From positions 1,777,497-1,841,496 of the forward strand of contig CP129489.1 of the NCBI GenBank assembly GCA_030584065.1: DNA of 64,000 nucleotides, given 5' to 3'. Position 1 is the stretch's first letter; each line of letters starts with the position of its first letter. Positions 22,881 through 49,055 of this stretch are shown one piece after another. The DNA is from Flavobacteriales bacterium. Its GTDB lineage: Bacteria > Bacteroidota > Bacteroidia > Flavobacteriales_F > PHOS-HE28. The notes under the pieces are model-generated. The model was not told the DNA's origin and did no database searches. It saw nothing but the letters and a program-made list of their open reading frames with translations. Position numbers and translations under genes: made by a program.

Positions 22881-24179
22881 ATGAAGAAGACCGCAAAGCC
22901 GCTCAAGCGCAAGGCGCCGTTGAGGAGGCAAGCCGCATCGAAGAGCAAGGAGTCGAAAGAGAGCAAGGCCCCCATGGCCATCAAGCGCTACTCAGGGAAG
23001 AAGGATGAGCGCGTTGCGGTGGTTGGAGAGCCAATGGTGCCCTACGGTCAAGGGTCATTCCGCTTCATCGACCTGTTCTGTGGCATCGGTGGCTTCCACA
23101 TCGCTTTCTCCAAGCAGGGTGGCGAATGTGTGTTCGCATCAGACTGGGACAAGTACGCCCAGATCTCCTACGCCGCGAATCACGGCCTTACTCCCATCGG
23201 TGACATCACCAAGGTGCCTGTGAAGGACATCCCTAAGCATGAGGTCCTTTGCGCGGGCTTCCCTTGCCAGCCCTTCAGCATTGCAGGTGTGTCTAAAAAG
23301 AACAGCCTCGGGCGCAAGCACGGCTTTGAGGATGAGCGGCAAGGCAACCTATTCTTCAACATCGCGGAGATCCTGGACCACCACCGTCCGGCGGCCTTCG
23401 TGTTGGAGAACGTGAAGAACCTGAAGAGCCATGATCGCGGGAATACCTACAAGGTGATCATGGACATCCTGCGGAACAAGCTCGGTTATCATGTCGTGGA
23501 GCCCCGCATCATCGATGCCAAGCCTTACGTGCCGCAACACCGGGAGCGCATCTTCATCGTTGGCTTCTGCGATGCCGCTGCGGCAGAGCGGTTCAAGTGG
23601 CCTACGCCTCCAAGCGAAGGCCCCAAGCTGCATACGATACTTCAACCCCGTGTGCCTGAGAAGTACACGTTGACCGACCATCTGTGGGCCTACCTCCAGA
23701 ACTACGCCGCCAAGCACAAGGCTGCGGGCAATGGCTTCGGCTTCGGTCTTGTGGGGCCGGATGACACAGCGCGCACATTGAGCGCACGCTACCACAAGGA
23801 TGGTTCGGAGATCCTGATCAACCAAGGCCGGGGGCGTAATCCGCGTCGACTCACTCCTGATGAATGTGCCTTGCTCATGGGCTATGAGGACTTCGAGATC
23901 GTGGTGAGCGATACGCAAGCCTATCGCCAGTTCGGCAACTCGGTCGTGGTCCCTGTTGTTACGGCGATCGCTGAGCAGGTGACCAAGGCCTTGGGCCTAA
24001 CCAGTGAGCAACACAAGCTGATGGCTTCCCATGCGGCCGAGCCAAGCACCACTTACACCAAGGCCAAGGCTTCCAAAGTCGGAGCGAAGGCTGTAGTTGA
24101 ACAAGATCTTAACGATCTTTCGGGGGCGATCAAGCCAGGCGCAAAGCAGAAGCGCAAGGCTGATCTTGCCCTTGCATGA
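22881..24179 (+). CDS. dcm: DNA (cytosine-5)-methyltransferase (Dcm family)
   Basis: Motif [10 protein letters not shown], motif [10 protein letters not shown], motif [10 protein letters not shown], motif [14 protein letters not shown]. Lys-rich N-terminal extension. 4-nt overlap with the next gene. Confidence 0.9.
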
Positions 24180-25372
24180 GCCAGTCCCTTGCAGACGTCT
24201 TTGATGCCGTAGCGCACAAGCGCCTTGTGCAGGTCGACCTTCCCGGAATGGGGTCGAACCAGCATGAATTGAATGGTGTATCAGCGCTTCGCGAGTTCTT
24301 CCAGACCAGCGAAAAGGTCGAAGGACCATTGCATTGGCACTACTTCGCCGATGATAAGGAGGTTGAAGAGCAGGAAGGGCGTTTCAGTTTCTATGATGCG
24401 AGGGCCAAGTCCGCCGAAAGGACGGGGCGCTCTGAGTGGCGTTTCTATTACTCCGGTGAGTTCCTTGCGAAGTGTGCACCAGGCGATGAGTTGATCATTG
24501 TTCGCGCGGCAGGCAAGGTGCATGCACTTGTATTTCAGCGAGGCTCAGCTCGTTTACGCGCGGCGCTTCTCCTGTTCGGCATTAGTTCCACAGGGGAGCA
24601 GATCAGTCTTCTGTCAAGTGAAGCAATAGCCAAGAGCGACCTCGCGCTTTTTCGGCGACAAGTCATCGAAGAGCTTGAGCTCGACGTCCAGTTGCCTGTT
24701 GCCGGTAACGACAAGGACTTGGTCATTGAGCGCTTCGGTGAGAAGTTCCCTTCAACCGCTGTCATGTCAGCCTTCGCGCGTGAGCAGGTCGGTTCGGATG
24801 TTGGGGACGCCGATGCTGCCTTGGTCGCGTGGCTTGATCGTGAAGAACAGCTCTTCCGCGCTCTGGAGGAGGTGATCATTAGCAAGCGCATCCAGCAAGG
24901 CTTCAAGGAGGTGGATGACTTCATCCAGTACTCGCTTACGGTTCAGAACCGCCGCAAGTCGCGCATGGGGCATGCCTTGCAGCATCACTTGGCCGAAGTG
25001 TTTACGCTCCACAAGGTTCAGTTCAAGGCTCAGGCGAAAACCGAGGGTGGCAACAAGCCCGATTTCATCTTTCCTGGCGAGGCTGAGTATCACAACGCAT
25101 CCTTCGACGAGTCGCTGCTTCTCATGCTTGGTGTGAAGTCCAGCGCGAAGGACCGTTGGCGTCAGATCCTTCCGGAAGCTTCGCGAATCGCCACCAAGCA
25201 CCTATGCACGCTGCAGCCTGGGATCTCAGAGAACCAGACCGATCAGATGGCCAGCGAACGTGTGCAATTGGTGATACCTAGTTCGATACAAGCCACTTAC
25301 ACGGATGCCCAGCGCTCCAAACTTCTGAGCGTTGCCGGCTTTATTGACTTGGTGCGTAGCAAGCAAGCGTGA
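24176..25372 (+). CDS. putative type II restriction endonuclease (EcoRII-like by size and context; PD-(D/E)XK-like ...KPDFIF...LGVKSS...)
   Basis: 398 aa, translationally coupled between dcm and vsr. A CCWGG-type M/R/Vsr trio is inferred from gene context only. Confidence 0.45.
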
Positions 25373-25735
25373 TGGCCAAGCGACACGACGTCTTCACCAA
25401 GGCCAAGCGCTCGGAGGTGATGTCGAAGATCCGGGGCAAGGGCAACAAAGCCACAGAGGTCGCCCTAGCCAAGCTATTTCGGGCCAGCGGCATCACCGGC
25501 TGGCGCAGACACTATCCCATTACAGGGAAACCAGACTTTGCCTTCCCCAAGCTGAAGTTCGCCGTCTTCGTGGATGGCTGCTTCTGGCATGGCTGCCCCA
25601 AGCATGGCACCCGGCCCAAGGGTGTAAGCTTCCCCGAAGTTCGGCCATTCATTGCTGGAGGTGAAGTGATCCTTGGCCCCGCGGGGCCAAGGATCGCTTC
25701 GGCCGGCCAGGGGCTACATTCAACCACACGTAGCC

Positions 25736-26008
25736 ATGAGAAAGAGCAAGTTCACCGAGCATCAGGTCATCGCCATCCTCAAGCGTCACGAGGCTGGCTC
25801 GAAGGTGGCCGACCTGTGCCGCGAGCACGGGATCAGCAACGCCACGTTCTACCAATGGAAGGCCAAGTATGGCGGCATGGAGCCCAACCAGGTCAAGCAG
25901 CTGCGTGACCTGCAGGAGGAGCTCAGCCGCCTGAAGCGCATGTACACCGAGCTGAGCATGGTGCATGATGCCTTGAAGCAGGTGGTGGAAAAGAAGTGGG
26001 GCGCCTGA
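25736..26008 (+). CDS. IS3-family transposase OrfA (HTH)
   Basis: [48 protein letters not shown]... Confidence 0.8.
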
Positions 26009-26033
26009 CGAGAAGCGCGAGATCGTTCAGGCG

Positions 26034-26807
26034 ATGATACAGGAGCACAGCATCTCCGAGCGCCAAGCCTGCGGCAGCGTGGGCTTGGCGCGCAGCACCG
26101 CGCAGTACTGCAAGACCCCAGCGGATGACACGCCCATTATCCAGGTCTTGGAACAGCTCACCCAGAAGCACCCGGCCATCGGGGTGTGGCAAAGCCATCA
26201 TCGGATGCGCTTGATGGGTCACCTGTGGAACTTCAAGCGGGTGTATCGGGTCTACACCGGTCTGGGCCTCAACATTCGTCGCAGGGCCAAGAAACGGCTG
26301 CCTGCACGGGTGAAGCAGGCGCTGTTCCGTCCTGCTGGTCCGGACCAGGTCTACAGCATCGACTTCATGCATGACAGCCTCTGGGACGGCCGGACCTACC
26401 GCTTGCTAAATGTGATCGACGACTACAACAGGGAGGTGCTCGCGATCGAGGTGGACACCTCACTGCCCGCACTGCGCGTGATACGCGTGCTGGAACGCAT
26501 CAAAGCAGTGCGTCCGCTGCCCAAGATGATCCGCGTGGACAACGGCCCGGAGTTCATCAGCGCCAAGCTCGACCACTGGTGCCGCGAACACGGCATTACC
26601 TTGACCTACATCCAGCCAGGCAAGCCCACCCAGAACGCCTACATCGAACGCCTCAACGGCAGCATCCGTCGTGAACTGCTCAGCGCCTACGTGTTCCGTA
26701 CCTTGGACGAGGTGCGCGAGAAGGCCGATGAGTGGATGACCGATTACAACCATCACCGCCCACACAAGGCGCTTGGCTACCGGCCGCCAGCGCCCATCCG
26801 ATCCTAA
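26034..26807 (+). CDS. IS3-family transposase OrfB (DDE integrase core)
   Basis: Has the DNGPEF motif and the rve fold. It lies in the +1 frame relative to orfA, not the usual -1 (see findings). Confidence 0.8.
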
Positions 26808-27040
26808 ACCTATGCCCCAGGAGCCTCTAGTTATGATCGGCCCGAAAACAGGGGAAGCTTACAAGGGCAACAGCGCGTTTTGGTCCGCGAAGCTGGACGC
26901 CAACAAGGCCCGGGACCGCAAGGTGAATCGTGAGCTTCTAGCCATGGGATGGCGCGTGCTAAGGATTTGGGAATGTAAGCTCCCCCAAGATCAGGTGCGT
27001 GGGATAGTAGAAACCCACAACCCACCTGAACTTTGGAGCA

Positions 27041-27307
27041 ATGAAGAAGAGTAAATGGACGGAAGCGCAGATCGTAGGGATGCTGCGCGAGCATGAGCAG
27101 GGCCGCAAAGTGGCGGACATCTGCCGGGAGCACAGAGTAAGCCAGCCGACGTTCTACCAGTGGAAGGCCAAGTATGGTGGCATGGGCGCAAGCGAGCTCA
27201 AGGAGCTACGGGCATTGCGCGAGGAGAATACCAAGCTGAAGCTCAAGCTGGCCGACACGATCCTGGACCGTGACATCCTCAAGGAGATCCTGGGAAAAAA
27301 GCCCTAG
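27041..27307 (+). CDS. IS3-family transposase OrfA
   Basis: [48 protein letters not shown]...; ends ...ILGKKP*. Confidence 0.8.
   Translation: MKKSKWTEAQIVGMLREHEQGRKVADICREHRVSQPTFYQWKAKYGGMGASELKELRALREENTKLKLKLADTILDRDILKEILGKKP
27295..27301 (+). promoter_or_regulatory. programmed -1 ribosomal frameshift heptamer A AAA AAG of IS copy 2
   Basis: 'gga aaa aag ccc tag' in the orfA frame. The -1 frame continues KKALGLAEKREMAHWLV... into orfB. Confidence 0.7.
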
Positions 27308-27327
27308 GGCTCGCCGAGAAGCGTGAG

Positions 27328-28227
27328 ATGGCACACTGGCTTGTAACGCAGTGCAAGCGCAGTGTTCGGCGGGTCTGCAAGCTGCTATGCTTGAGCCAGA
27401 GCGTGTATCGCTACGAGCCCAAGCCGAAGGACGATATCGACGTGATCGAACACATGAACCACTGGGTGACCAAGAAACCGACCTGGGGCTTTTGGAAGGT
27501 GTACACTCGTGTACGCAAGGACGGCCGTGTGGTGAACCACAAGCGCCTACACCGGCTGTACACCACAGCAGGGCTCAACCTGCGTCGACCTACGAAGAAG
27601 CGCGTTCCGGACCGGGTGAAAGAGCCACTGTGTTTGCCGATCGGCCCGAACATCACTTGGAGCATGGACTTCATGGCCGACCGGCTGCTGAACGGCAACA
27701 AGCTGCGCACGTTCAACGTCATTGACGACTTCGGCCGCGAGGCACTGAACATCACGATCGACACCTCTATCCGCGCCCAGTACGTGACGCGTGAACTGGA
27801 CAAGTTGATCGAGTGGCGTGGCAAGCCAGAGCGGCTGCGAGTGGACAATGGCCCTGAGTTCATCGCCCAGGAGATGGAATTGTGGGCGGAACGCAACGGC
27901 ATCGCACTTACGTTCATCGAGAAGGGGCGTCCCATGCAGAACGGCCTGATCGAGCGATTCAATCGCACCTACCGGGAAGAAGTGCTGGACGCCTACCTGT
28001 TCGAGAACCTCGAACAGCTTCGCCAGCTGACCATCGAGTTCATCTGGAGCTACAACAACGAGCGGCCCCATGATGCACTCCTGGACCTGACCCCGCGCGA
28101 GTTCCTGTTGAAATGTGGACAACTCCCTGCCCACTACGCAGGCTCACGCGCGGACTTCCCCACATTCCAACAGGATGATCACCACAGATCAACAGAAGTG
28201 GTGATCTTTAGGAATTCGCGCGCCTGA
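27328..28227 (+). CDS. IS3-family transposase OrfB (DDE)
   Basis: DNGPEFIAQ...; -1 frame relative to orfA. The OrfAB fusion is reachable by slippage at the A_AAA_AAG site. Confidence 0.8.
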   Translation: MAHWLVTQCKRSVRRVCKLLCLSQSVYRYEPKPKDDIDVIEHMNHWVTKKPTWGFWKVYTRVRKDGRVVNHKRLHRLYTTAGLNLRRPTKKRVPDRVKEPLCLPIGPNITWSMDFMADRLLNGNKLRTFNVIDDFGREALNITIDTSIRAQYVTRELDKLIEWRGKPERLRVDNGPEFIAQEMELWAERNGIALTFIEKGRPMQNGLIERFNRTYREEVLDAYLFENLEQLRQLTIEFIWSYNNERPHDALLDLTPREFLLKCGQLPAHYAGSRADFPTFQQDDHHRSTEVVIFRNSRA

Positions 28228-28311
28228 TCAGGGGGAGCTTACAGGAACATGACCTAACCGATAGGCGTGTTTCCCATACCATTAACCGCATTGAAGAATA
28301 CATCCAGATGT

Positions 28312-29175
28312 CTACCGCGAAGTAGGGTTTCGGAACAATACCATTTCCTTGAACTGAGCTGAGTCTAGTTGGTTATCGACTTCTCTCTCATTGTTCGCTG
28401 CAGTTGGTCCTCTCCAAACAGGAGATAGTCGCCAATTAATGACCCCGTTCCTTATACTATTCAGCACTGTTTCGGTCCATTCTGGGGAATAGGCGCAACC
28501 TGGCGGTGTGCTAGGTAAACTCATTGCATGAACAATCACAAATTCTAATCCTTTGTTAAACCTCTTTATGCATTGTTTCCACCACTTAGTTTTCACTGAA
28601 TGCTGAAGATGTGTATCATTCTCCATATAACCGAAAAGCTCCTCCTCGAAAATCTGGCAGAGTTTATCCATATTCTTAATTTCAGCATCCCTTAAGTAAC
28701 CCTCAGATTGAAATGGTGCATCAGCAGGAAGAGAATTGATGAACGCCTCTACGAACACATTCCAAGATTGGTCCGTAAGTCCGTGGTTTCTCCAATTTTC
28801 ACGATAGTGTCCAAGCTCGTCAAGCTGTGAGGTTACTCTTCCAATTATACGGAGCTTGGCTTCCGACCGACTAATACCCTCCCATGCAAGAGACTCACTA
28901 GCCTCGGCGCCAAAGCGGCGCTGCGCGTTTGTGAGTTCATCTTCGCTAATTGCAGAGTACTTTAATGCCTTATGTGTATACTGGTACTTATTCTGTGTGA
29001 ATTCATCATGTGCATTTGCAACAACTTCTAGAAAATCCTCATGATTTGGCCCTTTAAACACAGTAACTGGAACTGGTTGATTGGGCCGAGCGATGAGGTA
29101 AGCGCACAATCGATGATTGCCATCAAATACTTTTAACTGACCATCCGAGTATCGGCATAGAATAGGCGAAAGCAA
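28312..29175 (-). CDS. ParB/Srx-superfamily (DGQHR/DUF262-like) domain protein; no ATG start, in frame with the upstream HNH ORF
   Basis: ...SDGQLKVFDGNHRLCAYLIARPNQ... (D-G-x-H-R motif). Track start is a TTG. The 45 codons upstream, up to the HNH stop, contain no stop. Lower GC than the flanks. Confidence 0.55.
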   Translation of the reverse strand: MLSPILCRYSDGQLKVFDGNHRLCAYLIARPNQPVPVTVFKGPNHEDFLEVVANAHDEFTQNKYQYTHKALKYSAISEDELTNAQRRFGAEASESLAWEGISRSEAKLRIIGRVTSQLDELGHYRENWRNHGLTDQSWNVFVEAFINSLPADAPFQSEGYLRDAEIKNMDKLCQIFEEELFGYMENDTHLQHSVKTKWWKQCIKRFNKGLEFVIVHAMSLPSTPPGCAYSPEWTETVLNSIRNGVINWRLSPVWRGPTAANNEREVDNQLDSAQFKEMVLFRNPTSR

Positions 29176-29310
29176 TGGATTAGATCTCAGGTGCCATGCT
29201 AGGTTGATGACCTTGCGAACATCCGCTGCGCGTGTCTGTACTTGCCTGTCTACCCATAGCAGGGCTGGAGGAACAACAGTTGAAAATGAAGTCCATCTTT
29301 TATTGGTGAA

Positions 29311-29772
29311 CTATTGATGCATGACAGGATACTCCCTGTCTTGAAAGGTGGCTATATGTCGTTGATCATCCCATACAATATGCGCCTTGTACTCTGCAGC
29401 ATCAGGTGATCTCCCCGGAAGAAGGTCGTCTGAGAATCTTGTATTGGAGGCTTTGCGATGTATTTTAATATACTCAATCCATTCCTGTCCAGTGTACTTA
29501 TTGCCCTTCCCCTTGTGACAGTTCCTTCTTGCGGCAGTATCATATCCATCTTCAAAACAGGAAACTCCATCCCTTGCTGCATGAACAGGGTATTGATTGG
29601 CAACAAGGTCTGCTTGACGATCTCCGACTAATCCTTGGGCTAGCCAATGATCGAACTGGATATCTCCGAAATGTGCATATCCGTCGAAGTTTGAATGTGG
29701 TAAGCCCAAGCCGTCGCACACGTAGCATCGTGGCTTCTGCTCAAGTCTGCGCTCCTTCTCTGCTCGCGTCAT
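29311..29772 (-). CDS. HNH endonuclease domain protein
   Basis: CYVCDG...QFDHWLAQG...N...CHKGKGNK (CxxC...DH...N...CHxxK). Ends with a TAG at 29311-29313 in the same frame as the downstream ParB-like ORF. Confidence 0.7.
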   Translation of the reverse strand: MTRAEKERRLEQKPRCYVCDGLGLPHSNFDGYAHFGDIQFDHWLAQGLVGDRQADLVANQYPVHAARDGVSCFEDGYDTAARRNCHKGKGNKYTGQEWIEYIKIHRKASNTRFSDDLLPGRSPDAAEYKAHIVWDDQRHIATFQDREYPVMHQ

Positions 29773-29791
29773 GGCTTTGTTTCACTTATCG

Positions 29792-29890
29792 TTACATATT
29801 CCTCCGGTACTGCCCCCCCACCTCGAACATCGCTTGCGTCAACCGCCCTAGCGAGCAGTACTTCGTCGCCTCCATCAGCACCGCGAATCC
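29792..29890 (-). repeat. icmF 3'-terminus copy D (last ~33 codons plus stop), direct repeat
   Basis: ttacatattcctccggtactgccccc... encodes ...[31 protein letters not shown]; compare the real icmF end at 43246. Confidence 0.8.
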
Positions 29891-30044
29891 CGCTCCGGCA
29901 TCCGTAGGCCTCGTACCTCGGCCACGGTCGCTACGGCGGGACTTCGCGCTGCTTAGCATGGTGGTCATCACAAGTCGATCAAGGGCACAACGTAGACCCG
30001 GACGTGCGCATCCACGGTAACGATGTACGTATCGAGCAGCAGCT

Positions 30045-30281: not shown

Positions 30282-30395
30282 CGGGTCCGGTCACATGTTC
30301 CTCCGGTTCTGACCACCTACCTCGAACAACCTGTCCCGCCTTAGCGGATCGCTTGCGTCAACTGCCCCAGCGAGCAGTCCGTCGTCGCCTTCATC
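30282..30395 (-). repeat. icmF 3'-terminus copy E (degenerate)
   Basis: tcacatgttcctccggttctgaccacctacctcgaaca...cgcttgcgtcaactgccccagcgagcagtccgtcgtcgccttcatcagcac. Confidence 0.7.
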
Positions 30396-30420
30396 AGCAC
30401 GGAGCAGTTGACGCCGATGA

Positions 30421-30861: not shown

Positions 30862-31078
30862 AACGTTGGGCCCTTACGATATCCACCTCCTTGCGGATGG
30901 TCTCTTCATCGATGTCCACGCCCTTGAGCTTGGACATGAGTTCCTCCAGCCGGTCGAGCGCGCGTTCCCGCTCCAAGGCCTTGACCAGGGCCGCCTTCTT
31001 TTTCTCAGGCAATTGCTTGGCCAGCTCCACCACCTGGTCGGGGGTGAGATCGATACGGAATCCGCGGTCGAATGACAT
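30815..31078 (-). CDS. cognate antitoxin of the PIN toxin (small coiled-coil/RHH-like protein)
   Basis: MSFDRGFRIDLTPDQVVELAKQLPEKKKAALVKALERERALDRLEEL...; overlaps the PIN ORF start. Confidence 0.5.
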   Translation of the reverse strand: MSFDRGFRIDLTPDQVVELAKQLPEKKKAALVKALERERALDRLEELMSKLKGVDIDEETIRKEVDIVRAQRYAAAKKEASRAARRR

Positions 31079-31104
31079 GACCCAAAGATAAGCGATGCCC
31101 GGCC

Positions 31105-31215
31105 TTACATGTTCCTTCTGTACTGCCCACCCACCTCGAATCCCGCTCGTATGCCCGTACGCCTCGTTCCTCGGCAACGGTCATAACGGCGGGACTTCGC
31201 GCTGCTCAGCATACG
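31105..31215 (-). repeat. icmF 3'-terminus copy F (internally deleted version of copy D)
   Basis: ttacatgttccttctgtactgcccacccacctcgaa, then a post-divergence segment shared with copy D (...cggcgggacttcgcgctgct.agcat...). Confidence 0.7.
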
Positions 31216-31737
31216 CCTCATCACATATTACGTCGGTACTGTCCACCGACCTCAAACATAGCGGCGGTGAGCTGCCCCAGCGAACAATACTTCGTCGCCT
31301 CCATCAGCACCGCGAACATATTCTGGTTCCTGATCGCCGCCTGCTGAAGATCCTTGATCGCCTTGGCCGCCTCTGCCGAGTATGCCTGCTTCAAGTTCTC
31401 GACGGTGGCGATCTGCGCCTCCTTCTCCTCCTCGGTGGCGCGGATCACCTCCTTGGGCAGGATGGTGGGCGAGCCCTTGCTGCTGAGGAAGGTGTTCACG
31501 CCGATGATGGGGTATTCGCCGGTGTGCTTCAACGTTTCGTAGTAGAGGCTTTCCTCCTGGATGCGGCTGCGCTGGTACATGGTCTCCATGGCGCCCAGCA
31601 CGCCGCCGCGCTCGGTGATGCGATCGAACTCGGCCAAGACGGCCTCCTCCACCAGGTCGGTGAGCTCTTCGATGATGAAGCTGCCTTGCAGCGGGTTCTC
31701 GTTCTTGGCCAGGCCGAGCTCCTTGTTGATGATGAGC

Positions 31738-31930
31738 TCTTGGGTACCACACCGCACCCCGTTCCGGCGCCATCCGCCTTCGGCGGCCCCTTCGGGCGGG
31801 CGCGCTCGTCCGGCCATGCTGCGTTGCTCGTCGGTCGGCTACCTCGTGGTAGCCTCCCTTCCTCGCGCCTTGCCTGGCCGAACGATCATCGCCCGTGGCA
31901 TCCGTTCGGGGCACGGCGTGGTACCCTGTG
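31738..31930. repeat. MITE-like ~190-bp insert 1 (terminal inverted repeats GGGTACCAC / GTGGTACCC; core GCTACCTCGTGGTAGCCTC...CTGGCCGAACGATC...TGGCATC)
   Basis: Present in copy C between 'gatgatgagct' and 'ggccatggcgcgg'; absent from the intact icmF at 43730-43800. Confidence 0.65.
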
Positions 31931-32185
31931 GCCATGGCGCGGCGCACGCTTTCCTCGGTGCCTGAGCCTGCCCCGGCCTCCGAGCCGGGGTGGTGATGGC
32001 CTCGTCGTAGGCGTTGGTGTGCAGGCTGTTGCAGTTGTCGTAGATGGCGTAGAGCGCCTGCAACGTGGTGCGGATGTCGTTGAAGTCGATCTCCTGCGCG
32101 TGGAGGCTGCGGCCGCTGGTCTGGATGTGGTACTTCAGCATCTGGCTGCGCTCGTCGGCGCCGTAGCGGTGCTTGAGCGCCTTGG

Positions 32186-32382
32186 CCCGTTGGGTGCCAC
32201 GAAGTCCACCGAGCAGCGCCACTGCGGTGTAGCCGCTGCCCTTCGGGTGAGCGCCGCTCATTCGCCCATACTTCGTTGCTTCCTCAGTCAGCTACCTATG
32301 GGTAGCCTCTCTTCGTCGCGCCTCGTCTGGCCGAACGATCGTCACTCATGGCATCTGCCCGGCGAACTCCGAGGCACCCCGG
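32186..32382. repeat. MITE-like ~195-bp insert 2, same family as insert 1
   Basis: ...GCTACCTATGGGTAGCCTCTCTTCGTCGCGCCTCGTCTGGCCGAACGATCGTCACTCATGGCATCTGCCCGG...; absent from the intact icmF at 43985-44000. Confidence 0.65.
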
Positions 32383-32942
32383 CGGCGCGCCACGCGGCCC
32401 ATCACGGCGTACTCGGGGTCCATGCCGTTGCTGAAGAAGAAGCTCAGGTTGGGCGCGAAGGCGTTGATGTCCATGCCCCGGCTCAGGTAGTACTCCACGT
32501 AGGTGAAGCCGTTGGCCAAGGTGAAGGCAAGCTGGCTGATGGGGTTGGCGCCGGCCTCCGCGATGTGGTAGCCGCTGATGCTGACGCTGTAGAAGTTGCG
32601 GACCTTCTTGTCGATGAAGTATTGCTGCACATCGCCCATCAAGCGCAACGCGAACCTGCCTGTCCGGTAGGCAGGCTCGGTGCTGAAGATCGTTGTTCTG
32701 CGCCTGGTGGTTATGCCCGCCCTGAGCTTGTCGAAGGGTTGGGCGTGCCCCCTCGCAAAAGCCTCGGGGTCGCGTGCTTCGCTTTAGCCGGACTTGTCAG
32801 GGCCAGCATCCACGGCGCTGCGGGGTCCTCCTTCGTCGGCCTCCTCGCTGCTCGTGGTTGCAAGGCCCTTCCAGCGCCGGGCTGCCGCTTCGCCCGCTCA
32901 CGCAGATCCATTGTACCACGTTGAACGTGTACTTTTGTCCCA

Positions 32943-33299
32943 ATGCGCCGCCTCCTCTTCCTCCTAACCCTTGCCCTTTATGGCTATAGCGCCATGGATA
33001 TGCGCGAGTGGGTGCGAGTGCCGCAAGTGGTACTTCATATGCTGGAGCACCACAGCGATCTGGGCCACCATGACGAGGAAGGCTCGGACCATGAGCACGG
33101 TACCGGCCACGACCACATGCCCTTCGATTGTGATTGCCATGGCGAGTTCTGCGCATGCAGCGGCACGGTGGCCTTGTCCACTGAACCACAAGCCGCGCTG
33201 ATCTCGCTTGTTCCGCTCACCGCCACCTTGGGTGCCGCTGAACTTCCCATCGCTTCGGGTGCGTTCTCGGGCAACGTGTGGAACCCGCCCAAAGCCTGA
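32943..33299 (+). CDS. His/Cys-rich small putative metal-binding protein (signal or anchor helix at N-terminus)
   Basis: ...HHSDLGHHDEEGSDHEHGTGHDHMPFDCDCHGEFCACSG... Confidence 0.45.
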   Translation: MRRLLFLLTLALYGYSAMDMREWVRVPQVVLHMLEHHSDLGHHDEEGSDHEHGTGHDHMPFDCDCHGEFCACSGTVALSTEPQAALISLVPLTATLGAAELPIASGAFSGNVWNPPKA

Positions 33300-33405
33300 G
33301 TTGCCGCCACGTGCGGTAGTTCCTGCCTGTTCCGCCTGAGCGGATCGGGCTTGTCCGCGTTCCCGCGAACGCATTCCATTTCGTTCCATCTCGAAGTCAT
33401 TTCCC

Positions 33406-36400
33406 ATGATCGACCGGATCATCAAGTTCTCCATCCACAACAAGGCCATCATCGGGCTGTTCACGCTCGTGCTGGTGCTTTACGGGGCGTACTCGCTCAC
33501 GCAATTGCCGATCGATGCGGTACCCGACATCACCAACAACCAGGTGCAGGTGATCACCACCACGCCTACGCTGGCCGCGCAGGAGGTGGAACAGTTCGTT
33601 ACCGCGCCCATCGAGCGGGCCATGGCCAGCCTGCCCGATCTGGTGGAGATCCGCTCCATCAGCCGCTTCGGGCTAAGTCTTGTGACCATCGTATTCGATG
33701 AGGACGTGGACGTGTACTTCGCCCGCACCTTGGTGGACCAGCGCCTGGGCGAGGCCGCCGCACTGATACCGCCCGGGGTGGGCACACCGACCATGGCCCC
33801 GGTAAGCACCGGGTTGGGCGAGGTGTACCAATACGTGCTGCACCCCAAGGAAGGGTACGAGGGCACCTTCAGCCCCAGCGAGCTGCGCACCATCCAGGAA
33901 TGGATCGTAGTGCGGCAGCTGTTGGGCACACCCGGTGTGGCCGAGGTGAACAGCTACGGCGGCGAGGTGAAGCAGTACGAGGTGAGCGTGGACCCCAAGC
34001 GCTTGCAAAGCATGGGCGTCACCATCGGTGAGCTACTGCTCGCGTTGGAGAGCAACAACGAGAACACCGGCGGCGCCTACATCGAGAAACGGCCCAACAG
34101 CTACAGCATCCGGGGCGAAGGACTGCTGCGCACGCTGGACGACATCCGCAAGGTGGTGGTGAAGATCCCGCCCGGCGGTGTGCCGCTCCTGGTGGGCGAT
34201 GTGGCCGAGGTGGGCTTCGGTGCGGCCCCGCGCTACGGTGCGCTCACCCGCAATGGCGAAGGCGAAGCGGTGGGCGGCACGGTGATGATGCTGAAGGGTG
34301 GCAACAGCGCCGAAGTGGTGAAGGCTATTGAAGCGCGCATACCGAACGTGCAGAAGGCCCTGCCGGAAGGGCTGATGATCGAACCCTATCTGGTGCGCAG
34401 CGAACTGGTGGGGCGGGCCATCGGCACGGTGAAGACGAACCTGATCGAGGGCGCGTTGATCGTGATCTTCGTGCTGGTGCTCTTTCTAGGAAATTGGCGC
34501 GCGGGCCTCATCGTGGCCTCGGTGATCCCACTGTGCATGCTCTTCGCCATCATCCTCATGAACGCCTTCGGCGTCAGCGGCAATTTGATGTCGCTTGGTG
34601 CCATCGATTTCGGATTGATCGTGGACGGCGCCGTGATCATCGTGGAGGCCACCCTGCACCACCTGCATGCGCGCTTCAAGGGAAGGATCCTTACCCGCGA
34701 GGAGATGGACCGCGAGGTTTTCGTGAGCGCCAGCAAGATCCGGACGAGCGCGGCCTTCGGCGAGATCATCATCCTGATCGTGTACATCCCCATCCTCACA
34801 CTGGTGGGCATCGAGGGCAAGATGTTCCGCCCCATGGCCATCACCGTCAGCTTCGCCATCCTGGGTGCCCTGTTGCTCTCGCTCACCTATGTGCCCATGA
34901 TGAGCGCGCTGGTGCTGCCGCGCAACACGGCGCACAAACCCAACTTCAGCGACCGCATGATGGACCGTTTCCAGAAGTGGTACGATCCCATCATCGGCTT
35001 CGCCTTGCGCAACCGGATCAAGACCGTGGGTGTGGCCGTGGCGCTCTTCATCAGCTCGGTCTTCCTGTTCGCACGCATGGGCGGCGAGTTCATTCCCACC
35101 TTGGAAGAGGGCGACTTCGCCTTCCACAGCATCCTGCCGCAGGGCGCATCGCTCAGCCAGAGCATCGCCAACAACGCCAAGGTGGAGAAGATCCTGCTGC
35201 AATTCCCGGAGGTGAAGCAGGTGGTGGGACGCACCGGCAGCGCCGAGATCCCCACGGACCCCATGCCCCCCGAAGCCACGGACCTCATGATCATCTTGAA
35301 GGACAAGGACGAATGGACCACCGCGCACGACCGCGAGGCTTTGCAGGACACCATGCTGCAAGCCTTGAGGCAGGTACCCGGCGTGTTCTACGAAGCCACC
35401 CAACCCATCCAGATGCGCTTCAACGAATTGATGACCGGCATACGGCAGGACGTGGCCGTGAAGATCTACGGTGAGAACATGGACACCCTCGCGGTGATCG
35501 CGAACAAGGTGGCGGCGATCATCGGCGAAGTGCAAGGTGCGGGTGAACCGCAGGTGGAAAAGGTGGTGGGCCTGCCACAGATCACCATCACCTACGATCG
35601 TGCACGGGTAGCGCAGTACGGCCTCAACATCCGCGAACTGAACCGCACCGTGCGCACGGCCTTCGCGGGCGAGGCCACCGGCGTCATCTACGAGAACGAG
35701 CGCCGCTTCGATCTGGTGGTGCGCCTCGGTGACCAACAGCGGCAGAGCATCGACGATGTGCGCACCCTCTTCGTGGCGCTGCCCGGTGGCGGACAGATCC
35801 AGTTGCAGCAGGTGGCCGATGTGTCCTTGACACCCGGCCCGGCCCAGATCAGCCGGGAGGATGCCAAGCGCCGCATCGCCGTGGGCGTGAACATCCGTGG
35901 CCGTGACGTGGAAAGCTTCGTGGAAGAGCTCCAAGGCCGCATCGATGCCGAAGTGCCAATGCCCGCGGCCTACTACTACACCTTCGGCGGCACCTTCGAG
36001 AACCTGCAGGCAGCTAGCAAACGCCTGATGCTGGCGGTGCCCATCGCGCTGGCCCTCATCTTCCTGCTGCTCTTCTTCACCTTCAACAGCGTGAAGCGCG
36101 CCCTGCTGATCTACACCGCCATCCCCATGAGCGCCATCGGCGGTGTGCTTGCGCTCATGGCGCGCGGCATGCCCTTCAGCATCAGCGCGGGCGTGGGCTT
36201 CATCGCGCTCTTCGGCGTGGCGGTGCTCAACGGCATCGTCCTCATCGCCACCTTCGACCAACTGGAAAAGGAAGGCATCAGCGACCTGAAGGAGCGCGTG
36301 TTGAAAGGTACCCGCACACGGCTGCGTCCCGTGCTGATGACGGCGGCGGTGGCCTCGCTCGGTTTCCTGCCCATGGCCTTGAGCGGCAACGCGGGCGCGG

Positions 36401-41787: not shown

Positions 41788-41842
41788 TCGATAGTGCGAT
41801 CACCGTGTCCGAGAGTGAATGGAGTATCGTGCCCTTCGCGGG

Positions 41843-42312
41843 TCACATATTCCGCCGATACTGCCCCCCCACCTCAAACATTGCAGCAGTTAACTGACCC
41901 AGGCTGCAATACTTGGTCGCTTCCATCAAGACCGCAAACATGTTCTCGTTCTTGATCGCAGCCTCTTGAAGCTTCCGAGTGCGGCTTTCCCTTCAGCCTC
42001 ATAAGCCTTCTGCACGTTCTCCACGGTGCGGATCTGCGCTTCCTTCTCCTCTTCCGTAGCACGGATCACTTCCTTCGGGAGAACGGTCGGCGATCCTTTG
42101 CTCGACAAGAACGTGTTCACCCCAATGATCGGATACTCACCCGTGTGCTTCAGGGTCTCGTAGTACAAGCTCTCTTCCTGGATCCTTGAGCGCTGGTACA
42201 TGGTCTCCATGGCGCCCAGCACGCCGCCGCGCTCGGTGATGCGGTCGAACTCGCTGAGCACGGCCTCTTCCACCAGGTCGGTGAGCTCCTCGATGATGAA
42301 GCTGCCCTCGCG
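41843..42312 (-). pseudogene. icmF 3' copy B (~470 bp, frameshifted)
   Basis: Track ORFs 41926..42273 and 41874..42062 give ...[93 protein letters not shown]..., then the frame is lost. Confidence 0.8.
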
Positions 42313-42328: not shown

Positions 42329-43249
42329 TCACACTACGATGTACCGCTCTTGCAAATACGTTAGCCACTTATCGAAATCGGGTGATGGCGAATGCTCCTG
42401 GCAGATATCAAGAAATCGTTCATAAGTAAGCGTCATGAACCTGCCGTCCGGTGCGGCTAGGAAGGACTTGTAGCCTGTGCAAGCGTCGTCCATGTGCTTA
42501 TTGCCTTTCGGGAACAAGGTGAGCGAGGTAGCGTGGGCAAATCGCTCAGGATGCTTGAGCAGAATGCTCTCCGCGAGTAGGTGGTTCCGCCAGATCTGCC
42601 GGTAATCGTCTGTGATCACCTGTGTTTCGCATCCCGGCTTGAATATCCCACAGGCAGCCATGACCTTGAAGTAAATAGAGGCTCGGTCATTCACAGTTCG
42701 CTCTTCCGTGGAGCCATGCTTCAATTTGTAGGCGCGTTCGGTGTACTTCACCTCAATCCCGATAAGCCCCCGCCGACCTTCCTTATCAGTGCTTTCGGTA
42801 TATGCATCGAAAGATGTACCATCATTCAAATACTCTGAACGTGGCGACGGCGCAAACTCGATGCGAATCGGATCGACAGTGCTCAAGGGTTCTCCAAGCA
42901 AGTCTGAGAAAACCTGCAGGCGATACTTATCGTCCAAGTTCAGGGGCCAGAGCATGTTCAACGGAATGTGCTCGCTCCGAAGCATGTTCCCATAGACCTT
43001 CTCGCTCGTTATCGGATAACGCTTCCTAGCGGCTTCCAAGATGCCTAACTCGGGATAGAAGTTGCATCCTGCATCCGCGTCGCATGGCGTTAGGAAGTTG
43101 CCGTAGTTCTTCGTCTTACTCCATCCGTGTGGCAATTTCAACCGCTCTGCACGGAATCTTGATTGATGAAGGCGCGCCTTCTTCAGGAATTCGGACTTAT
43201 CGAGTCCGTCATCCCCGCTGTATTGTGGTCCGATACCGTAACTCATCAC
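42329..43249 (-). CDS. hypothetical PD-(D/E)XK-like nuclease-fold protein (cargo of the cassette nearest icmF)
   Basis: ...[29 protein letters not shown]... (D...E-x-K). AT-richer than the flanks. Its start overlaps the icmF stop. Confidence 0.4.
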
Positions 43250-46200
43250 ATATTCCTTCTGTACTGTCCGCCGACTTCGAACATGGCCGCAGTGAGTTGA
43301 CCGAGACTACAGTACTTGGTGGCTTCCATCAACACTTCGAACATGTTCTCATTCTTGATCGCAGCTTGCTGGAGGTCTTTGATGGCTTTGGCCGCCTCAT
43401 CCGCATAAGCAGTTCGGAGATTCTCGACGGTCGCTATCTGGGCTTCTTTCTCCTCTTCCGTAGCTCTGATGACCTCTTTCGGCAAGATCGTCGGTGATCC
43501 TTTGCTCGACAGGAAGGTATTCACCCCGATGATGGGATACTCACCCGTGTGCTTCAAGGTCTCGTAGTACAAGCTTTCCTCCTGGATGCGGCTGCGCTGG
43601 TACATCGTTTCCATCGCACCCAAGACCCCACCACGTTCCGTGATCCGATCGAACTCCGTCAACACCGCTTCCTCGACGAGATCCGTCAATTCTTCGATGA
43701 TGAAGCTGCCCTGCAACGGGTTCTCGTTCTTGGCCAGGCCGAGCTCGCGGTTGATGATGAGCTGGATGGCCATGGCGCGGCGCACGCTTTCCTCGGTGGG
43801 CGTGGTGATGGCCTCGTCGTAGGCGTTGGTGTGCAGGCTGTTGCAGTTGTCGTAGATGGCGTACAGCGCCTGCAACGTGGTGCGGATGTCGTTGAAGTCG
43901 ATCTCCTGCGCGTGCAGGCTGCGGCCGCTGGTCTGGATGTGGTACTTGAGCATCTGGCTGCGCTCGTCGGCGCCGTAGCGGTGCTTGAGCGCCTTGGCCC
44001 AGAGGCGACGCGCCACGCGGCCCATCACGGCGTACTCGGGGTCCATCCCGTTGCTGAAGAAGAAGCTCAGGTTGGGCGCGAAGGCGTTGATGTCCATGCC
44101 CCGGCTGAGGTAGTACTCCACGTAGGTGAAGCCGTTGGCCAGCGTGAACGCGAGCTGCGAAATGGGGTTGGCGCCGGCCTCCGCGATGTGGTAGCCGCTG
44201 ATGCTGACGCTGTAGAAGTTGCGGACCTTTTGGTCGATGAAGTACTGCTGAACGTCGCCCATCAAACGCAGCGCGAACTCGGTGCTGAAGATGCAGGTGT
44301 TCTGCGCCTGGTCCTCTTTGAGGATGTCGGCCTGCACGGTGCCGCGGACGCTCTGCAGGGTCTCCGCCTTGATCTTCTCGTAGACGTCTTTCGGGAGGAC
44401 TTGGTCGCCGGTGATGCCGAGCAACAACAATCCTAGGCCATCATTGCCCGCAGGTATTTCTCCGTGGTAGCGCGGTCGAGGTGAATGGTGAATGGGAGTT
44501 GGTGAATGGGAAGAGCCCTTCCCTCCATTCGCCATTGACCATTCGCCATTCGCCTTCTCCAACTTCTCCCAGCGCTCCTTGATCTTCTTCTCCACCTCGG
44601 CCTCCAACCCGTGCTCACGGATGTACTTCTCACAGTTCTGGTCGATCGCGGCGTTCATGAAGAAGCCGAGGAGCATGGGCGCGGGACCGTTGATGGTCAT
44701 GCTCACGCTGGTGTTGGGCGCGGTGAGGTCGAAGCCGCTGTAGAGCTTCTTGGCATCGTCCAGGCAGCAGATGCTCACACCGCTGTTGCCCACCTTGCCG
44801 TAGATGTCGGGCCTGCGACCGGGATCGTGGCCGTAGAGCGTCACGCTGTCGAACGCGGTGCTGAGGCGCTTGGCGGGCATGCCCTGGCTCACGTAGTGGA
44901 AGCGCTTGTTGGTGCGCTCCGGACCGCCCTCGCCGGCGAACATGCGCGCGGGGTCCTCGCCCTGGCGCTTGAAGGGATAGATGCCCGCGGTGTAGGGGTA
45001 CGACCCCGGGGTGTTCTCCTGCATGGCCCAGCGCACCTTGTCGCCCCAGCTGCGGAACTTGGGCAGCGCCACCTTCGGGATCTTCAGGTGACTGAGGCTC
45101 TCGGTGTGGTTGGGCACCTTGATCTCCTTGCCGCGGACGGAGTAGGTGTAGAATTCACCGGAGTATTTCTCCTCCTCCTTCTTCCAGTTCTGGAGCATGG
45201 ACCAGAGGTGGGGGTCGAGGTCTTTGCGGATGTCCTCGAACTTCTTCACCAGCTCAGTAACGAGTGGTGAGTGGCGAGTGGCGAGTGTGCCGTCGGAGGC
45301 AGCACTCGCCACTCGCGACTCGTCACTCACCACTCCGTGAAGGACGTCAGGCCCGCCGAGCGTGAGGATCGATGAGTACAGACCATAGAGTTGGTCCGCA
45401 ATACGTGCCTGTTTCGTCACCCGATCATCATACCTCCGGTTGTTCTCGCTGATCTCGCTGAGGTAGCGGCTCTTGGCGGGGGGAATGATCCACACCTTCT
45501 CGCTCATCTCGTCCATCCCGTGGAAGGTGCTCTTGAAGTCCACGCCGGTCTTCTCGGCGATCTTGGTCATCAAGCGGGCGTAGAGCGTGTTGGTGCCGGG
45601 ATCGTTGAACTGGCTGGCGATGGTGCCCACCACGGGGAGCGTGTCATCGTCGGCGTCCCACAGCTGGTGGTTGCGCTTATACTGCTTCTTCACGTCGCGC
45701 AGGGCATCGAGGGCGCCGCGCTTGTCGAACTTGTTGATGGCCACCACGTCGGCGAAGTCGAGCATGTCGATCTTCTCCAGCTGCGTGGCCGCGCCGAACT
45801 CCGGCGTCATGATGTAGAGGCTCACATCGCTGTGGTCCAGGATCTCGGTATCGCTCTGGCCGATGCCGCTCGTCTCCAGGATGATCAGGTCGAAGCCCGC
45901 GGCCTTCAGCACGCTCACGGCCTCCTTCACGTGCTTGCTGAGGGCCAGGTTGCTCTGGCGCGTGGCGAGGCTGCGCATGTATACACGCTCGCCGCGGATG
46001 CTGTTCATGCGGATGCGGTCGCCCAGCAGCGCGCCGCCGGTCTTGCGCTTGCTCGGGTCCACGCTGATCACGCCGATGGTCTTGCCTTGGTCCGGGCTTG
46101 ACCCGGACTGGTCCAGGATGAAGCGGCGGATGAGCTCGTCCACCATGGACGATTTACCCGCGCCGCCCGTACCCGTGATGCCCAGCACGGGAGCCTTGTT

Positions 46201-46803
46201 CGCCTCGGCCTGCTTGTGGATCTCGTCGGCGATCTTGGCGAACACCTCGGGATGGTTCTCGGCCGTGCTGATCAACTTGGCGATGGCCGGCCAGTTCTGC
46301 GGCGTCAGCTTCTTCGCCTCGCCGTTCACCTTATCGCTCAGGTCGAAGTCGGCCTTCTCCAGCATGTCGTTGATCATGCCCTGCAGGCCCATCGCGCGAC
46401 CGTCATCCGGATGGTACAGGCGCGTGATGCCGTACGCGTGCAGCTCCTCGATCTCGCTGGGCAGGATCGTCCCGCCGCCACCGCCGAAGATCTTGATGTG
46501 CCCCGCGCCCTTCTCCTTCAGCAGGTCGAACATGTACTTGAAGTACTCCACGTGCCCGCCCTGGTAGCTGGTCATGGCAATGGCGTGGGCATCCTCCTGG
46601 ATCGCGGTGTTCACCACGTCCTCCACGCTGCGGTCGTGCCCCAGGTGGATCACCTCGGCGCCGGTGCTCTGGATGATCCGCCGCATGATGTTGATGGCGG
46701 CATCGTGGCCGTCGAACAACGAGGCGGCGGTGACCACGCGGATCTTGTTCTTGGGCTGGTAGGGAGGAGCTTGCACGAACGTTGACATGTACGGAGGCCG
46801 CAA
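43246..46803 (-). CDS. icmF: fused isobutyryl-CoA mutase (B12-binding domain, MeaB-like G-protein, mutase barrel), with two in-frame palindromic insertions
   Basis: [11 protein letters not shown]12 DxHxxG; [13 protein letters not shown]-loop; methylmalonyl-CoA-mutase-like C-terminal half ending ...[11 protein letters not shown]. 1185 aa against ~1090 typical. Confidence 0.9.
44479..44551. repeat. in-frame palindromic insertion 1 in icmF (arms of GAATGG-type short repeats around GGGAAGAGCCCTTCCC)
   Basis: ggtgaatggtgaatgggagttggtgaatgggaagagcccttccctccattcgccattgaccattcgccattcgcc; encodes the odd segment ...[26 protein letters not shown]... Confidence 0.6.
45262..45334. repeat. in-frame palindromic insertion 2 in icmF (arms of GAGTGGC-type short repeats)
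   Basis: gagtggtgagtggcgagtggcgagtgtgccgtcggaggcagcactcgccactcgcgactcgtcactcaccactc; encodes ...[24 protein letters not shown]... Confidence 0.6.
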
Positions 46804-47052: not shown

Positions 47053-47254
47053 AAACATGGCAATAGCGATCAGCGGCGCGGTCATCGTAGAAAACGGCAG
47101 CCGTATAAAGTACCGGCAGAAGTGCGATAAGTGCGGCCATTCCCCTAGTACGGTCATCGCTATTGGAGCACCCACGGGTGCCAACAAGCTCACGACATCA
47201 TTCAAATGCCCCAAGTGTGGAAACCAGCAGCGCTTTGAGATCGCCGGTCGTTGA
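47053..47254 (+). CDS. small zinc-ribbon protein (two CxxC pairs)
   Basis: MTRNMAIAISGAVIVENGSRIKYRQKCDKCGH...FKCPKCGNQQRFEIAGR*; AT-rich insert. Confidence 0.45.
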
Positions 47255-47287
47255 ACCGCAAGCCAGGACCTATTCCGCTTGGCTCGA

Positions 47288-48739: not shown

Positions 48740-48757
48740 CGCAATGTTAACTACATC

Positions 48758-48985
48758 CTCCACGCCGCGGTCGTGCCCCAGAGCCTGCCCCGGCCTTGAG
48801 CCGGGGTGGATCACCTCGGCGCCGGTGCTCTGGATGATCCGCCGCATGATGTTGATGGCGGCATCGTGGCCATCGAACAACGAGGCGGCAGTGACGACAC
48901 GGATCTTGTGTTTCGGGACGTAGGGCGGGGCTTGGACGAAGGTGGACATGCGTGAACGCCGGAGGACTGATCGCGGCTTGCCGCG
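48758..48985 (-). repeat. copy of the icmF 5' end (promoter-proximal ~25 bp plus codons 1-~64) carrying a 25-bp hairpin insert
   Basis: Encodes [48 protein letters not shown].... Upstream 'cgcggcttgccgcgaaggtaccggt' is identical to 46826-46850. Confidence 0.8.
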
Positions 48986-49055
48986 AAGGTACCGGTGGAA
49001 CACCGTTCCTCAAATCATCAGTAGAAGGCCACGGGAGTAGGCGTAGGTTAGTCAT

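Follow-up and report, generated by a model that had tools for sequence, protein, structure and literature searches.

The 64-kb stretch of DNA considered here (hereafter the window: 64,000 nucleotides of a Flavobacteriales genome, GenBank assembly GCA_030584065.1, contig CP129489.1, positions 1,777,497 to 1,841,496) contains a complete icmF gene together with several displaced partial copies of it. The icmF gene of this organism encodes the fused isobutyryl-CoA mutase and is not the type VI secretion gene; its protein matches PDB entry 4xc6 over the whole length. A displaced 3′ fragment on the same strand is interrupted by two related inserts of about 190 nt, termed A and B, which are the principal subject of this study (Table 1). 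Both belong to a family of structured elements found at six sites in related assemblies, with a fold that is maintained in one strand only. We give roughly even chances to the reading that they are non-autonomous elements, moved by way of a single-stranded intermediate and surviving where their insertion is harmless.

Alignment of the displaced fragment with the functional gene reveals four insertions, namely A, B and two short hairpins, h1 and h2. A and B can be aligned with each other from end to end, with a mean column identity of 83% over the full alignment, and share a 99-nt repeat (D9) that is 77% identical. The ends of B are GGGTACCAC and GTGGTACCC, and those of A are GGGTGCCTCGG... and ...CGTGGCACCC. 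A preliminary description of the locus had placed both inserts within 2-3 nt of these limits and quoted a core that is indeed common to the two; the ends that it gave are those of B and do not hold for A. On the minus strand, B folds with a free energy of -128.4 kcal/mol (z = -10.8 against shuffled sequence) and A with -109.8 kcal/mol (z = -8.1). This, together with the copies at 37 loci of other assemblies described below, confirms that both inserts are real and not products of chance. A and B are the only copies of the family in the window (nhmmer --max, filters off), and a promoter and terminator scan of positions 31000-33500, which did not cover Bacteroidota promoters, returned nothing within them. 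The displaced fragment cannot encode a protein, because stop codons in both A and B interrupt its sense frame and the bases separating the 26-nt hairpin from B are read out of frame. On the opposite strand, a 609-residue open reading frame (ORF) runs stop-free through the whole fragment and both elements; it is probably an artefact of high G+C content, open to miscalling as a gene.

Table 1. Positions of the icmF copies, inserts and associated features in the window, followed by the six insertion sites of the family (slashes set off the bases replaced)
Feature	Position	Strand	Remarks
Insert B	31739-31928	minus	190 nt, net +187; icmF codon ~1013; same-site copies in at least 18 other loci
Insert A	32189-32380	minus	192 nt, net +189; icmF codon ~934; same-site copies in at least 12 other loci
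Functional icmF	43246-46803	minus	1185 aa; Pfam B12-binding, MeaB, MM_CoA_mutase; empty-site reference for all inserts
Displaced 3′ icmF fragment	31217-32708	minus	Codons ~826-1185; aligns to 43242-44312; host of A, B and two short hairpins
Partial icmF 3′ copy	41843-42308	as functional gene	Downstream of functional gene
Short terminal icmF pieces	31107-31140, 30308-30406, 29794-29887	as functional gene	Downstream of functional gene
Displaced 5′ icmF fragment	48745-48996		Upstream of functional gene; codons ~1-65, 86-89% identical; bears an h1 hairpin
h1 hairpin	31961-31990		Between A and B; GC-rich; net +26 nt, one adjacent substitution
h1 hairpin, second	48782-48805		In displaced 5′ icmF fragment; clean 24-nt insertion
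h2 hairpin	32655-32675		Near 5′ end of displaced 3′ fragment; clean 21-nt insertion (net +21); relative in L028
Repeat X	32739-32906	minus	~168 nt; 5′ boundary of displaced 3′ icmF fragment
Antisense ORF	31095-32924	plus	609 aa
PD-(D/E)XK nuclease gene	42329-43249	minus	PDDEXK_13 / REase-ARP; start overlaps icmF stop codon
Two ORFs	47163-48739		No family matches; between 5′ icmF fragment and functional gene
In-frame palindromes of functional icmF	45262-45333, 44478-44556		
Site A	icmF codon ~934		Empty: CGCC/TCT/GGGCC
Site C	icmF codon ~952		Empty: ATGC/TCAA/GTACC
Site B	icmF codon ~1013		Empty: GCCA/TCC/AGCTC
Site D	icmF codon ~1078		Empty: AGCC/TCT/ACTAC (TGT in the window's functional copy)
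carB site			L007, L017, L035; empty site taken from protein homologues (DKLYFEP) only
Acyl-CoA thioesterase site			L011, L019; empty allele L038

The family extends well beyond the window. When one genome per species (596 Gb) was scanned for an exact pattern, 18 loci were identified; a second and looser core pattern applied to metagenome contigs identified 19 more, and a profile built from the first matches disclosed one further subtype in the same loci (loci carry L numbers below). All matches occur in high-GC, Flavobacteriales-like assemblies, the named sources being Flavobacteriales or metagenome-assembled genomes of Bacteroidota, save one labelled Planctomycetota. Element length ranges from about 186 to 207 nt, with at most three copies per genome under the strict genome pattern. 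The matches are confined to six sites, of which four are in displaced 3′ parts of icmF, one is in an apparent 3′ fragment of carB and one in an acyl-CoA thioesterase gene. No intergenic copy is present among the matches in the genome and metagenome collections, and no copies at all were recovered from the plasmid collection (blastn, distant mode) or from viral contigs (pattern scan). A protein database search with the translated element core, aimed at more host genes, gave no match at E ≤ 1, probably because such matches are too short. With copies at several sites and a polymorphism of occupied and empty alleles, the inserts represent a repeated family and not unique indels, as the preliminary description had anticipated. 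Its statement that they are confined to displaced icmF copies is correct within the window; the apparent carB fragment and the thioesterase gene show that it does not apply to the family as a whole.

The hosts of the icmF copies are uniform in kind. As tblastn with the functional protein shows, each element-bearing icmF copy in the 37 loci is a 3′ fragment whose first codon is ~824-838 or a later one. Neither the genome nor the metagenome collection yielded a full-length icmF with an element, and the full-length genes of the window, L001 and L018 are empty at all four sites. The elements present vary between homologous fragments: A only (L001, L009), B only (L006, L008, L012, L014), A and B (the window, L010), A and C (L005, L015, L016, L025, L026), or A, C and B (L036), and a specific sequence subtype occupies each site. 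The carB copy of L007 begins near codon 435 with no N-terminal half within 2.7 kb upstream and, as judged from 8 kb of the locus, looks like a displaced 3′ fragment too. The thioesterase copy is antisense to its host and in frame, such that the ORF is left open and the host gene intact. Comparison of the filled allele (L011, 6145-6843) with the empty allele of L038 shows a clean insertion of 195 nt, or 65 codons, with zero bases lost. This locus is an ordinary chromosomal setting between ribonucleotide reductase genes, with no island nearby; the filled allele is found on 80 contigs, and the thioesterase homologues listed are all about 130 residues long. In one close insert-free homologue (P0002, of proteins P0001-P0004), Gln replaces Leu exactly at the junction, which could be the original target allele or the footprint of an excision.

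The elements also share a conserved fold. An alignment of 36 distinct element sequences was used to derive a consensus structure with RNAalifold, comprising 55 pairs of which 22 display compensatory double changes. The folded strand is the icmF-sense strand, and the architecture is that of a four-way junction. The two element ends form a closing stem of 19-20 bp, followed by a short second stem. A long arm extends from the junction, bearing the conserved internal loops GAUCGUUCGGCCAG ... AGGCGCGA ... GCAACG and ending in a GGCUACC/GGUAGC hairpin, and the structure is completed by two small hairpins, CCC-GAA-GGG and a variable fifth hairpin that lies outside the consensus. Standard pairs fill 98.9% of the structure cells, compared with 31-43% when the partners are slid by 1-3 columns, and the covariation score of 0.331, against 0.135 in shuffled alignments, was reached in none of 500 shuffles. 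Conservation is distributed unevenly over this structure. The closing stem is almost wholly different between subtypes, with about 7 nt in common (GGGTRCC), and there is next to no variation in the interior strands and internal loops, the interior thus being more conserved than the ends.

The fold is also specific to one strand. G·U pairs occupy 165 cells of the alignment as opposed to five for A·C, and this bias also holds for the antisense thioesterase copy, whose pairing was read from the alignment. With RNA parameters, the minus strands of the two inserts reach -128 and -110 kcal/mol and the plus strands -105 and -80 kcal/mol, so that the icmF-sense strand is favoured by 23-30 kcal/mol; with DNA parameters (-66 versus -55 kcal/mol) it is favoured by 11 kcal/mol. 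From the G·U excess and this asymmetry of folding it follows that the selected fold lies in a single strand, whether of RNA or of single-stranded DNA.

There is moderate evidence that the elements remain constrained after insertion. Variants within a site include 26 changes that retain pairing and 13 that break it; if transitions are in plausible excess, only about one third of random stem changes would be expected to retain it. The rate of change in stems is about half that in unpaired columns. Between L007 and L017, likewise, the carB copies differ by paired double changes. The suggestion in the preliminary description that the displaced copies decayed freely is therefore apt for the fragment, which tolerates insertions, and inapt for the elements, whose stems are kept between copies at the same site.

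The junctions are equally characteristic. Where empty and filled sequences could be compared, at the four icmF sites and in the thioesterase gene, no target duplication is apparent and 0-5 target bases are lost. The icmF sites lack 3-5 bases, the replaced bases being TCT at A, TCC at B, TCAA or TGAA at C and TCT at D (TGT in the window's functional copy); replacement of TCT at carB is deduced from protein homologues only. No direct repeats flank the elements at any of the six sites, and in all six events the unit ends at the same points, give or take about 3 nt. Microhomology of 1-3 nt is occasionally present, as the first bases of the element, CAG, coincide with the target at site B and in the thioesterase gene. 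The left flanks of the 190-nt elements have a single feature in common, usually a final C. Complementarity or identity of a guide-like kind between each subtype and its own target flanks amounts to scattered 7-8-mers at inconsistent positions, and RNA-guided targeting is thus without support. The GC skew on the element strand, taken as a measure of replication orientation, is noisy from locus to locus and is reversed in sign at the thioesterase locus.

These properties sit poorly with MITEs, the miniature inverted-repeat transposable elements, to which the inserts had initially been likened. MITEs are defined by terminal inverted repeats of at least 10-15 bp, target-site duplications of 2-10 bp and, in prokaryotes, an intergenic location in about 90% of cases (PMC11602168). 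As classical MITEs, the elements would be deletion derivatives of DDE-type insertion sequences, cut and pasted by a transposase that binds the terminal inverted repeats. They are indeed small and non-coding, their ends form inverted repeats of 19-20 bp, they occupy several sites with presence/absence polymorphism, and IS3-family transposase genes are encoded in the window at 26034-28227. Against this, target duplications, which the preliminary description had proposed to look for, are absent at all six sites, the arms differ between subtypes save for the ~7 nt of GGGTRCC and co-vary, and the interior is better conserved than the ends. Furthermore, an excess of G·U over A·C pairs is not expected of a double-stranded protein-binding site. 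The elements are not dispersed, being restricted to six sites with no more than three strict-pattern copies per genome, and a REP-like intergenic occurrence, also raised in that description, finds no match in either collection. With no partner element in the 287 kb examined either, we regard an origin as classical MITEs as very improbable.

The constant ends, the lack of duplication, the small losses, the occasional microhomology and the one-strand fold together lead to the reading of the inserts as non-autonomous elements. A single-stranded intermediate is suggested by the conservation of shape and interior rather than of the ends, and on one strand only. This intermediate would be either single-stranded DNA or RNA and its complementary DNA (cDNA), and a protein encoded elsewhere would recognise both the fold and the conserved core. 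The elements would persist in the displaced icmF fragment, itself left behind when cargo entered the gene, because insertion there does no harm, and the 190-nt interruptions would in turn restrict conversion between that fragment and the functional gene.

Several observations weigh against this reading. No fitting transposase, reverse transcriptase or integrase was seen near the elements in the window and the inspected loci, and a longer partner element with the same ends was not found in the 287 kb examined. The scan patterns were strict, and diverged intergenic copies may have escaped them. The pattern of occupied and empty sites among icmF fragments could stem from gene conversion by the functional copy and not from repeated insertion, for which reason six is the safe number of independent insertions. 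Displaced fragments hold five of the six sites, all in sense orientation, and four fall inside a span of ~430 nt; such clustering exceeds what would be expected of a freely transposing element and may indicate a role tied to the islands. Lastly, the upkeep of stems after insertion suggests that the copies act where they sit, which a purely selfish view of the fragment as a landing pad would not foresee.

The elements might instead be retro-copies of a small, stable, rod-shaped RNA gene, the discrete RNA being reverse-transcribed and patched as cDNA into breaks or gaps in the manner of a SINE or a processed pseudogene. Constant ends in six events, the lack of duplication, small deletions and microhomology of 1-3 nt (CAG at B and in the thioesterase gene) all agree with such an origin, as do the compensatory evolution between subtypes and the strand-specific G·U pairs. 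No master gene was found beyond the six sites in either scan, however, no reverse transcriptase was seen near the elements, and compensatory changes also separate copies at the same site, which would not be expected of dead copies. We know of no precedent in bacteria for retro-copy insertion of this type, and consider it improbable here.

A still less credible proposal is that the inserts are introns, or remnants of a donor-lineage icmF allele that normally contains them; this we judge to be most improbable. It draws on the sense orientation of the elements in icmF and carB, on their highly structured, RNA-like fold, and on net sizes in the window that are multiples of three (A, +189; B, +187, plus a hairpin of +26, for +213). 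All icmF hosts in the 37 loci, though, are 3′ fragments, the elements contain stops in the sense frame, and net sizes of +186 to +190 mean that end-to-end removal of the elements does not restore the frame at all sites. No group I or II intron model was matched, and the thioesterase copy is antisense to its host. The related idea in the preliminary description, which derived the copies from a donor genome abounding in these elements, is not supported, given the lack of any full-length element-bearing icmF in either collection, the sense-frame stops and the differing subsets found in homologous fragments.

The surroundings of the elements must also be considered. A layout of full gene, cargo and co-oriented 3′ fragment is shared by the window, L001 and L018. 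Integrative genetic elements (IGEs) that enter a gene are known to restore it by means of a substitute fragment, displacing the old one and often producing tandem arrays (PMC7192596). The window holds six co-oriented copies of the terminal 34-99 nt of icmF (29794-29887, 30308-30406, 31107-31140, 31217-31316, 41840-41938 and 43243-43341), suggesting that cargo entered serially at the gene's 3′ end to form an array. Between one icmF fragment's stop and the next short fragment lies a repeat of about 94 nt with a hairpin, 80% identical between its two copies (29879-29972 and 31132-31225). The cargo between the icmF copies comprises the PD-(D/E)XK nuclease, an RND/HlyD/P-type ATPase efflux set and small ORFs without family matches. 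The nuclease gene is directly followed by a displaced icmF 3′ fragment of 470 nt, and exact look-up of its protein returned no record. At other loci, cargo ORFs resemble PIN-type and HicB-type toxin-antitoxin genes, as judged by eye and without a Pfam scan, and the cargo of L018 is a single gene for a small secreted protein. No integrase gene was seen among the annotated neighbours and Pfam hits of the cargo segments inspected in the window and other loci.

Elsewhere in the window, sorting-domain proteins of the Por_Secre_tail type are encoded, and G+C content is 58-70% outside one lower-GC stretch. That stretch (22881-28227) carries genes for a Dcm-type methylase, an EcoRII-like endonuclease and Vsr, followed by the two IS3-family transposase genes, and G+C falls to 47-50% at 28000-30000.

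The boundary between cargo and fragment is itself marked by a repeat. Repeat X, a second structured repeat, starts with GCGTGAGCGGGCG, which a variable hairpin and GGGGCACGCCCAA follow, and is found upstream of icmF fragments in most loci. It also precedes the carB fragments (L007, 5124-5301; L017, 1-162; L035, 83-252), at two different positions of carB, and the cargo upstream of it differs between genomes. Short hairpins accumulate in the same fragments. The three that the preliminary description noted in the window are all present, although two of them, at 31961 and 48783, are not unrelated as then supposed and represent a single family, h1, with the consensus GAGCCTGCCCCGGCCT(3-4 nt)GAGCCGGGG. 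Further h1 copies occur at three other positions in icmF fragments (L015/L026, L022/L027 and L028), in both orientations relative to the gene, and comparison of filled with empty sites shows that each copy, in the sense of the hairpin, follows a target CAC. The short hairpins are accordingly small mobile or templated palindromes, and not three unrelated accidents.

As had been claimed, the inserts and hairpins listed for the displaced copies are absent from the aligned functional icmF, although this gene bears two other, in-frame palindromic inserts. Each encodes a peptide of about 25 residues, in a stretch that is absent from the solved enzyme of C. metallidurans. In L018, other palindrome-like peptides are found at the same two linker positions, which have therefore been re-occupied repeatedly.

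Sequence identity between the displaced and functional copies is organised in blocks that change exactly at the inserts: the segment 3′ of B has 80% identity, that between the two inserts 98-100%, and that 5′ of A 91-93%. The simplest reading is that gene conversion is confined to uninterrupted segments, so that identity shifts at the inserts because these interruptions limit conversion. Between loci, identity is 90-100% for the B elements, about 96% for the 180 nt upstream and 79-98% for the 510 nt downstream. This upstream uniformity arises in part because codons ~850-1000 (43809-44258) are uniform in all icmF copies; at the nucleotide level they are 98-100% identical between functional and displaced copies and 97-98% identical between the functional genes of the window and L018, which are 71-92% identical elsewhere, and this suggests that the codons undergo frequent exchange or conversion. 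Over its last ~470 nt the functional gene has only 77-80% identity with the displaced copies, as though this stretch had arrived with the later nuclease cassette, whose own fragment boundary lies at ~43712. Elements recombine with one another as well, as evident from a hybrid in L037 (13800-14006), which has the left flank of A and the right flank of D, the ~430 nt between them deleted and mismatches in its closing stem, and from an A-site element in L025 (6418-6622) with a D-type tip.

From these observations the elements could be construed as a working part of a cargo-insertion hot spot, acting either as deletion barriers to the benefit of the island or as folded single-strand recombination sites where fragments are exchanged, a role that is possible but in our estimation unlikely. 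As barriers they would act through their stop codons, since homologous deletion of the island through the near-identical stretch of 600 nt would carry a stop-bearing element into icmF. Such a role would account for the location of five of the six sites in displaced 3′ fragments beside the X boundary repeat, in two target genes, and for the accumulation of h1 and h2 hairpins in the same fragments. It would likewise account for stems that are upheld after insertion, for identity blocks that shift exactly at the elements, for the uniformity of B and its 180 nt of upstream sequence between genomes (90-100%, against 79-98% in the 510 nt downstream), and for the A/D recombinant of L037 and the chimeric tip of L025. 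The thioesterase copy, on the other hand, resides in an ordinary chromosomal gene with no island near, and no recombinase is associated with the elements. Heterology-bounded identity blocks are expected from gene conversion alone, and the drop in identity 3′ of B is largely due to the later nuclease cassette, whose fragment boundary lies ~50 nt downstream of the B site. The closing-stem mismatches of the L037 hybrid, moreover, fit plain homologous recombination between repeats of 80% similarity.

A bolder extension of this role, and one that we hold to be rather improbable, is that the elements, the X repeat and the small hairpins are sites of an undescribed system for cargo exchange at the 3′ ends of housekeeping genes (icmF and carB) in Flavobacteriales. 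Such a system would insert single genes or small gene sets, with the elements serving as folded single-strand sites for recombination, similar to attC, or for priming. A recombinase or nuclease from elsewhere would read their shape and core, and crossovers would fall at or beside them.

Returning to the elements as non-autonomous, structured repeats, a comparison with established classes identifies likenesses and no membership. A search of Rfam (cmscan of 28000-50000, E ≤ 1) gave nothing in the elements, with only weak matches to microRNA-like hairpins elsewhere; the models without a match include group I and II introns, small ribozymes, 6S, 6S-Flavo, HEARO and STAXI. A CUGANGA motif reminiscent of hammerhead ribozymes is present in subtype A, is not conserved in B and matches no model. 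A retron RNA was also discounted, given that no reverse transcriptase is found among neighbouring ORFs with Pfam hits and that, on the structured strand, the short hairpins come after the long one.

The ERIC/IRU repeats of enterobacteria and the similar Correia/NEMIS repeats are among the nearest parallels. These are also non-coding, imperfect palindromes along their whole length of 100-200 nt, which form a rod in one strand with preserved pairing, display presence/absence polymorphism, and depend on mobilising machinery that acts in trans or is not known. ERIC and Correia elements are intergenic and often abundant, and Correia elements duplicate TA upon insertion. The elements described here have no sequence similarity to them, occupy at most three strict-pattern sites per genome, reside in coding-derived sequence without duplication, and fold into a four-way junction with a conserved internal-loop core in place of a simple hairpin. 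The Rickettsia palindromic elements (RPE) are structured elements of ~100-150 nt located inside protein-coding genes. The thioesterase copy, in frame over 65 codons with its ORF open, resembles them in this respect, as does the functional icmF with its in-frame palindromes. Conversely, the copies in icmF and carB are out of frame with stops and sit in fragments without function; nor are the organisms related or the sequences similar.

The absence of target duplication and the folding of one strand are shared with the PATEs of IS200/IS605 and with the REP/RAYT system, and the position of h1 next to CAC recalls their short target motifs. PATEs possess separate sub-terminal hairpins at each end, however, REP sequences are palindromes of 20-40 nt with a GTAG head, and elements of this class have a fixed target motif of 4-5 nt 5′ of the left end and a Y1 transposase or RAYT gene in the genome, whereas the 190-nt elements pair from end to end around a conserved centre and have left flanks that share only the final C. 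Similarities to integron attC sites are found in the recognition of a folded single strand, in structure that is kept while sequence varies, in strand selectivity, and in location at boundaries in cargo arrays. The attC sites span 57-141 nt and contain R″ and R′ boxes (RYYYAAC/GTTRRRY) along with extrahelical bases. A GTTGGGT box is found at one end of subtype A and not in other subtypes, no IntI gene was seen among the annotated neighbours, and the elements are located inside gene fragments and not between cassettes; identification as attC was rejected. Finally, the displaced fragments themselves correspond to those generated by IGEs (PMC7192596), in that a 3′ fragment is displaced by cargo, a substitute 3′ end is provided and fragments occur in tandem, but the inspected cargo lacks an integrase and the fragments range in length from 34 to 1490 nt. 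Published work on displaced IGE fragments does not describe structured elements accumulating in them, and nothing specific was found in the literature on structured palindromic inserts in pseudogenes of Bacteroidetes. The family thus appears to be undescribed, of the structured-repeat kind and nearest in behaviour to ERIC, RPE and IS200/IS605/REP, although a member of none.

Taken together, these results define a well-supported structured element without an Rfam counterpart, confined to a narrow clade of wastewater-type Flavobacteriales. Its signature of insertion, with a constant unit, no duplication and few bases lost, fits no standard class of bacterial repeat. For annotation, neither the inserts nor the antisense ORF that spans them should be called as genes or as a frameshifted icmF. 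The locus further provides a concrete case of how the gene fragments left over at cargo hot spots gather structured DNA, and of the way in which interruptions of this kind divide up gene conversion between the functional and the displaced copy of a gene. If the elements are found to function as sites of the hot spot, a new mechanism of cargo exchange would be indicated.

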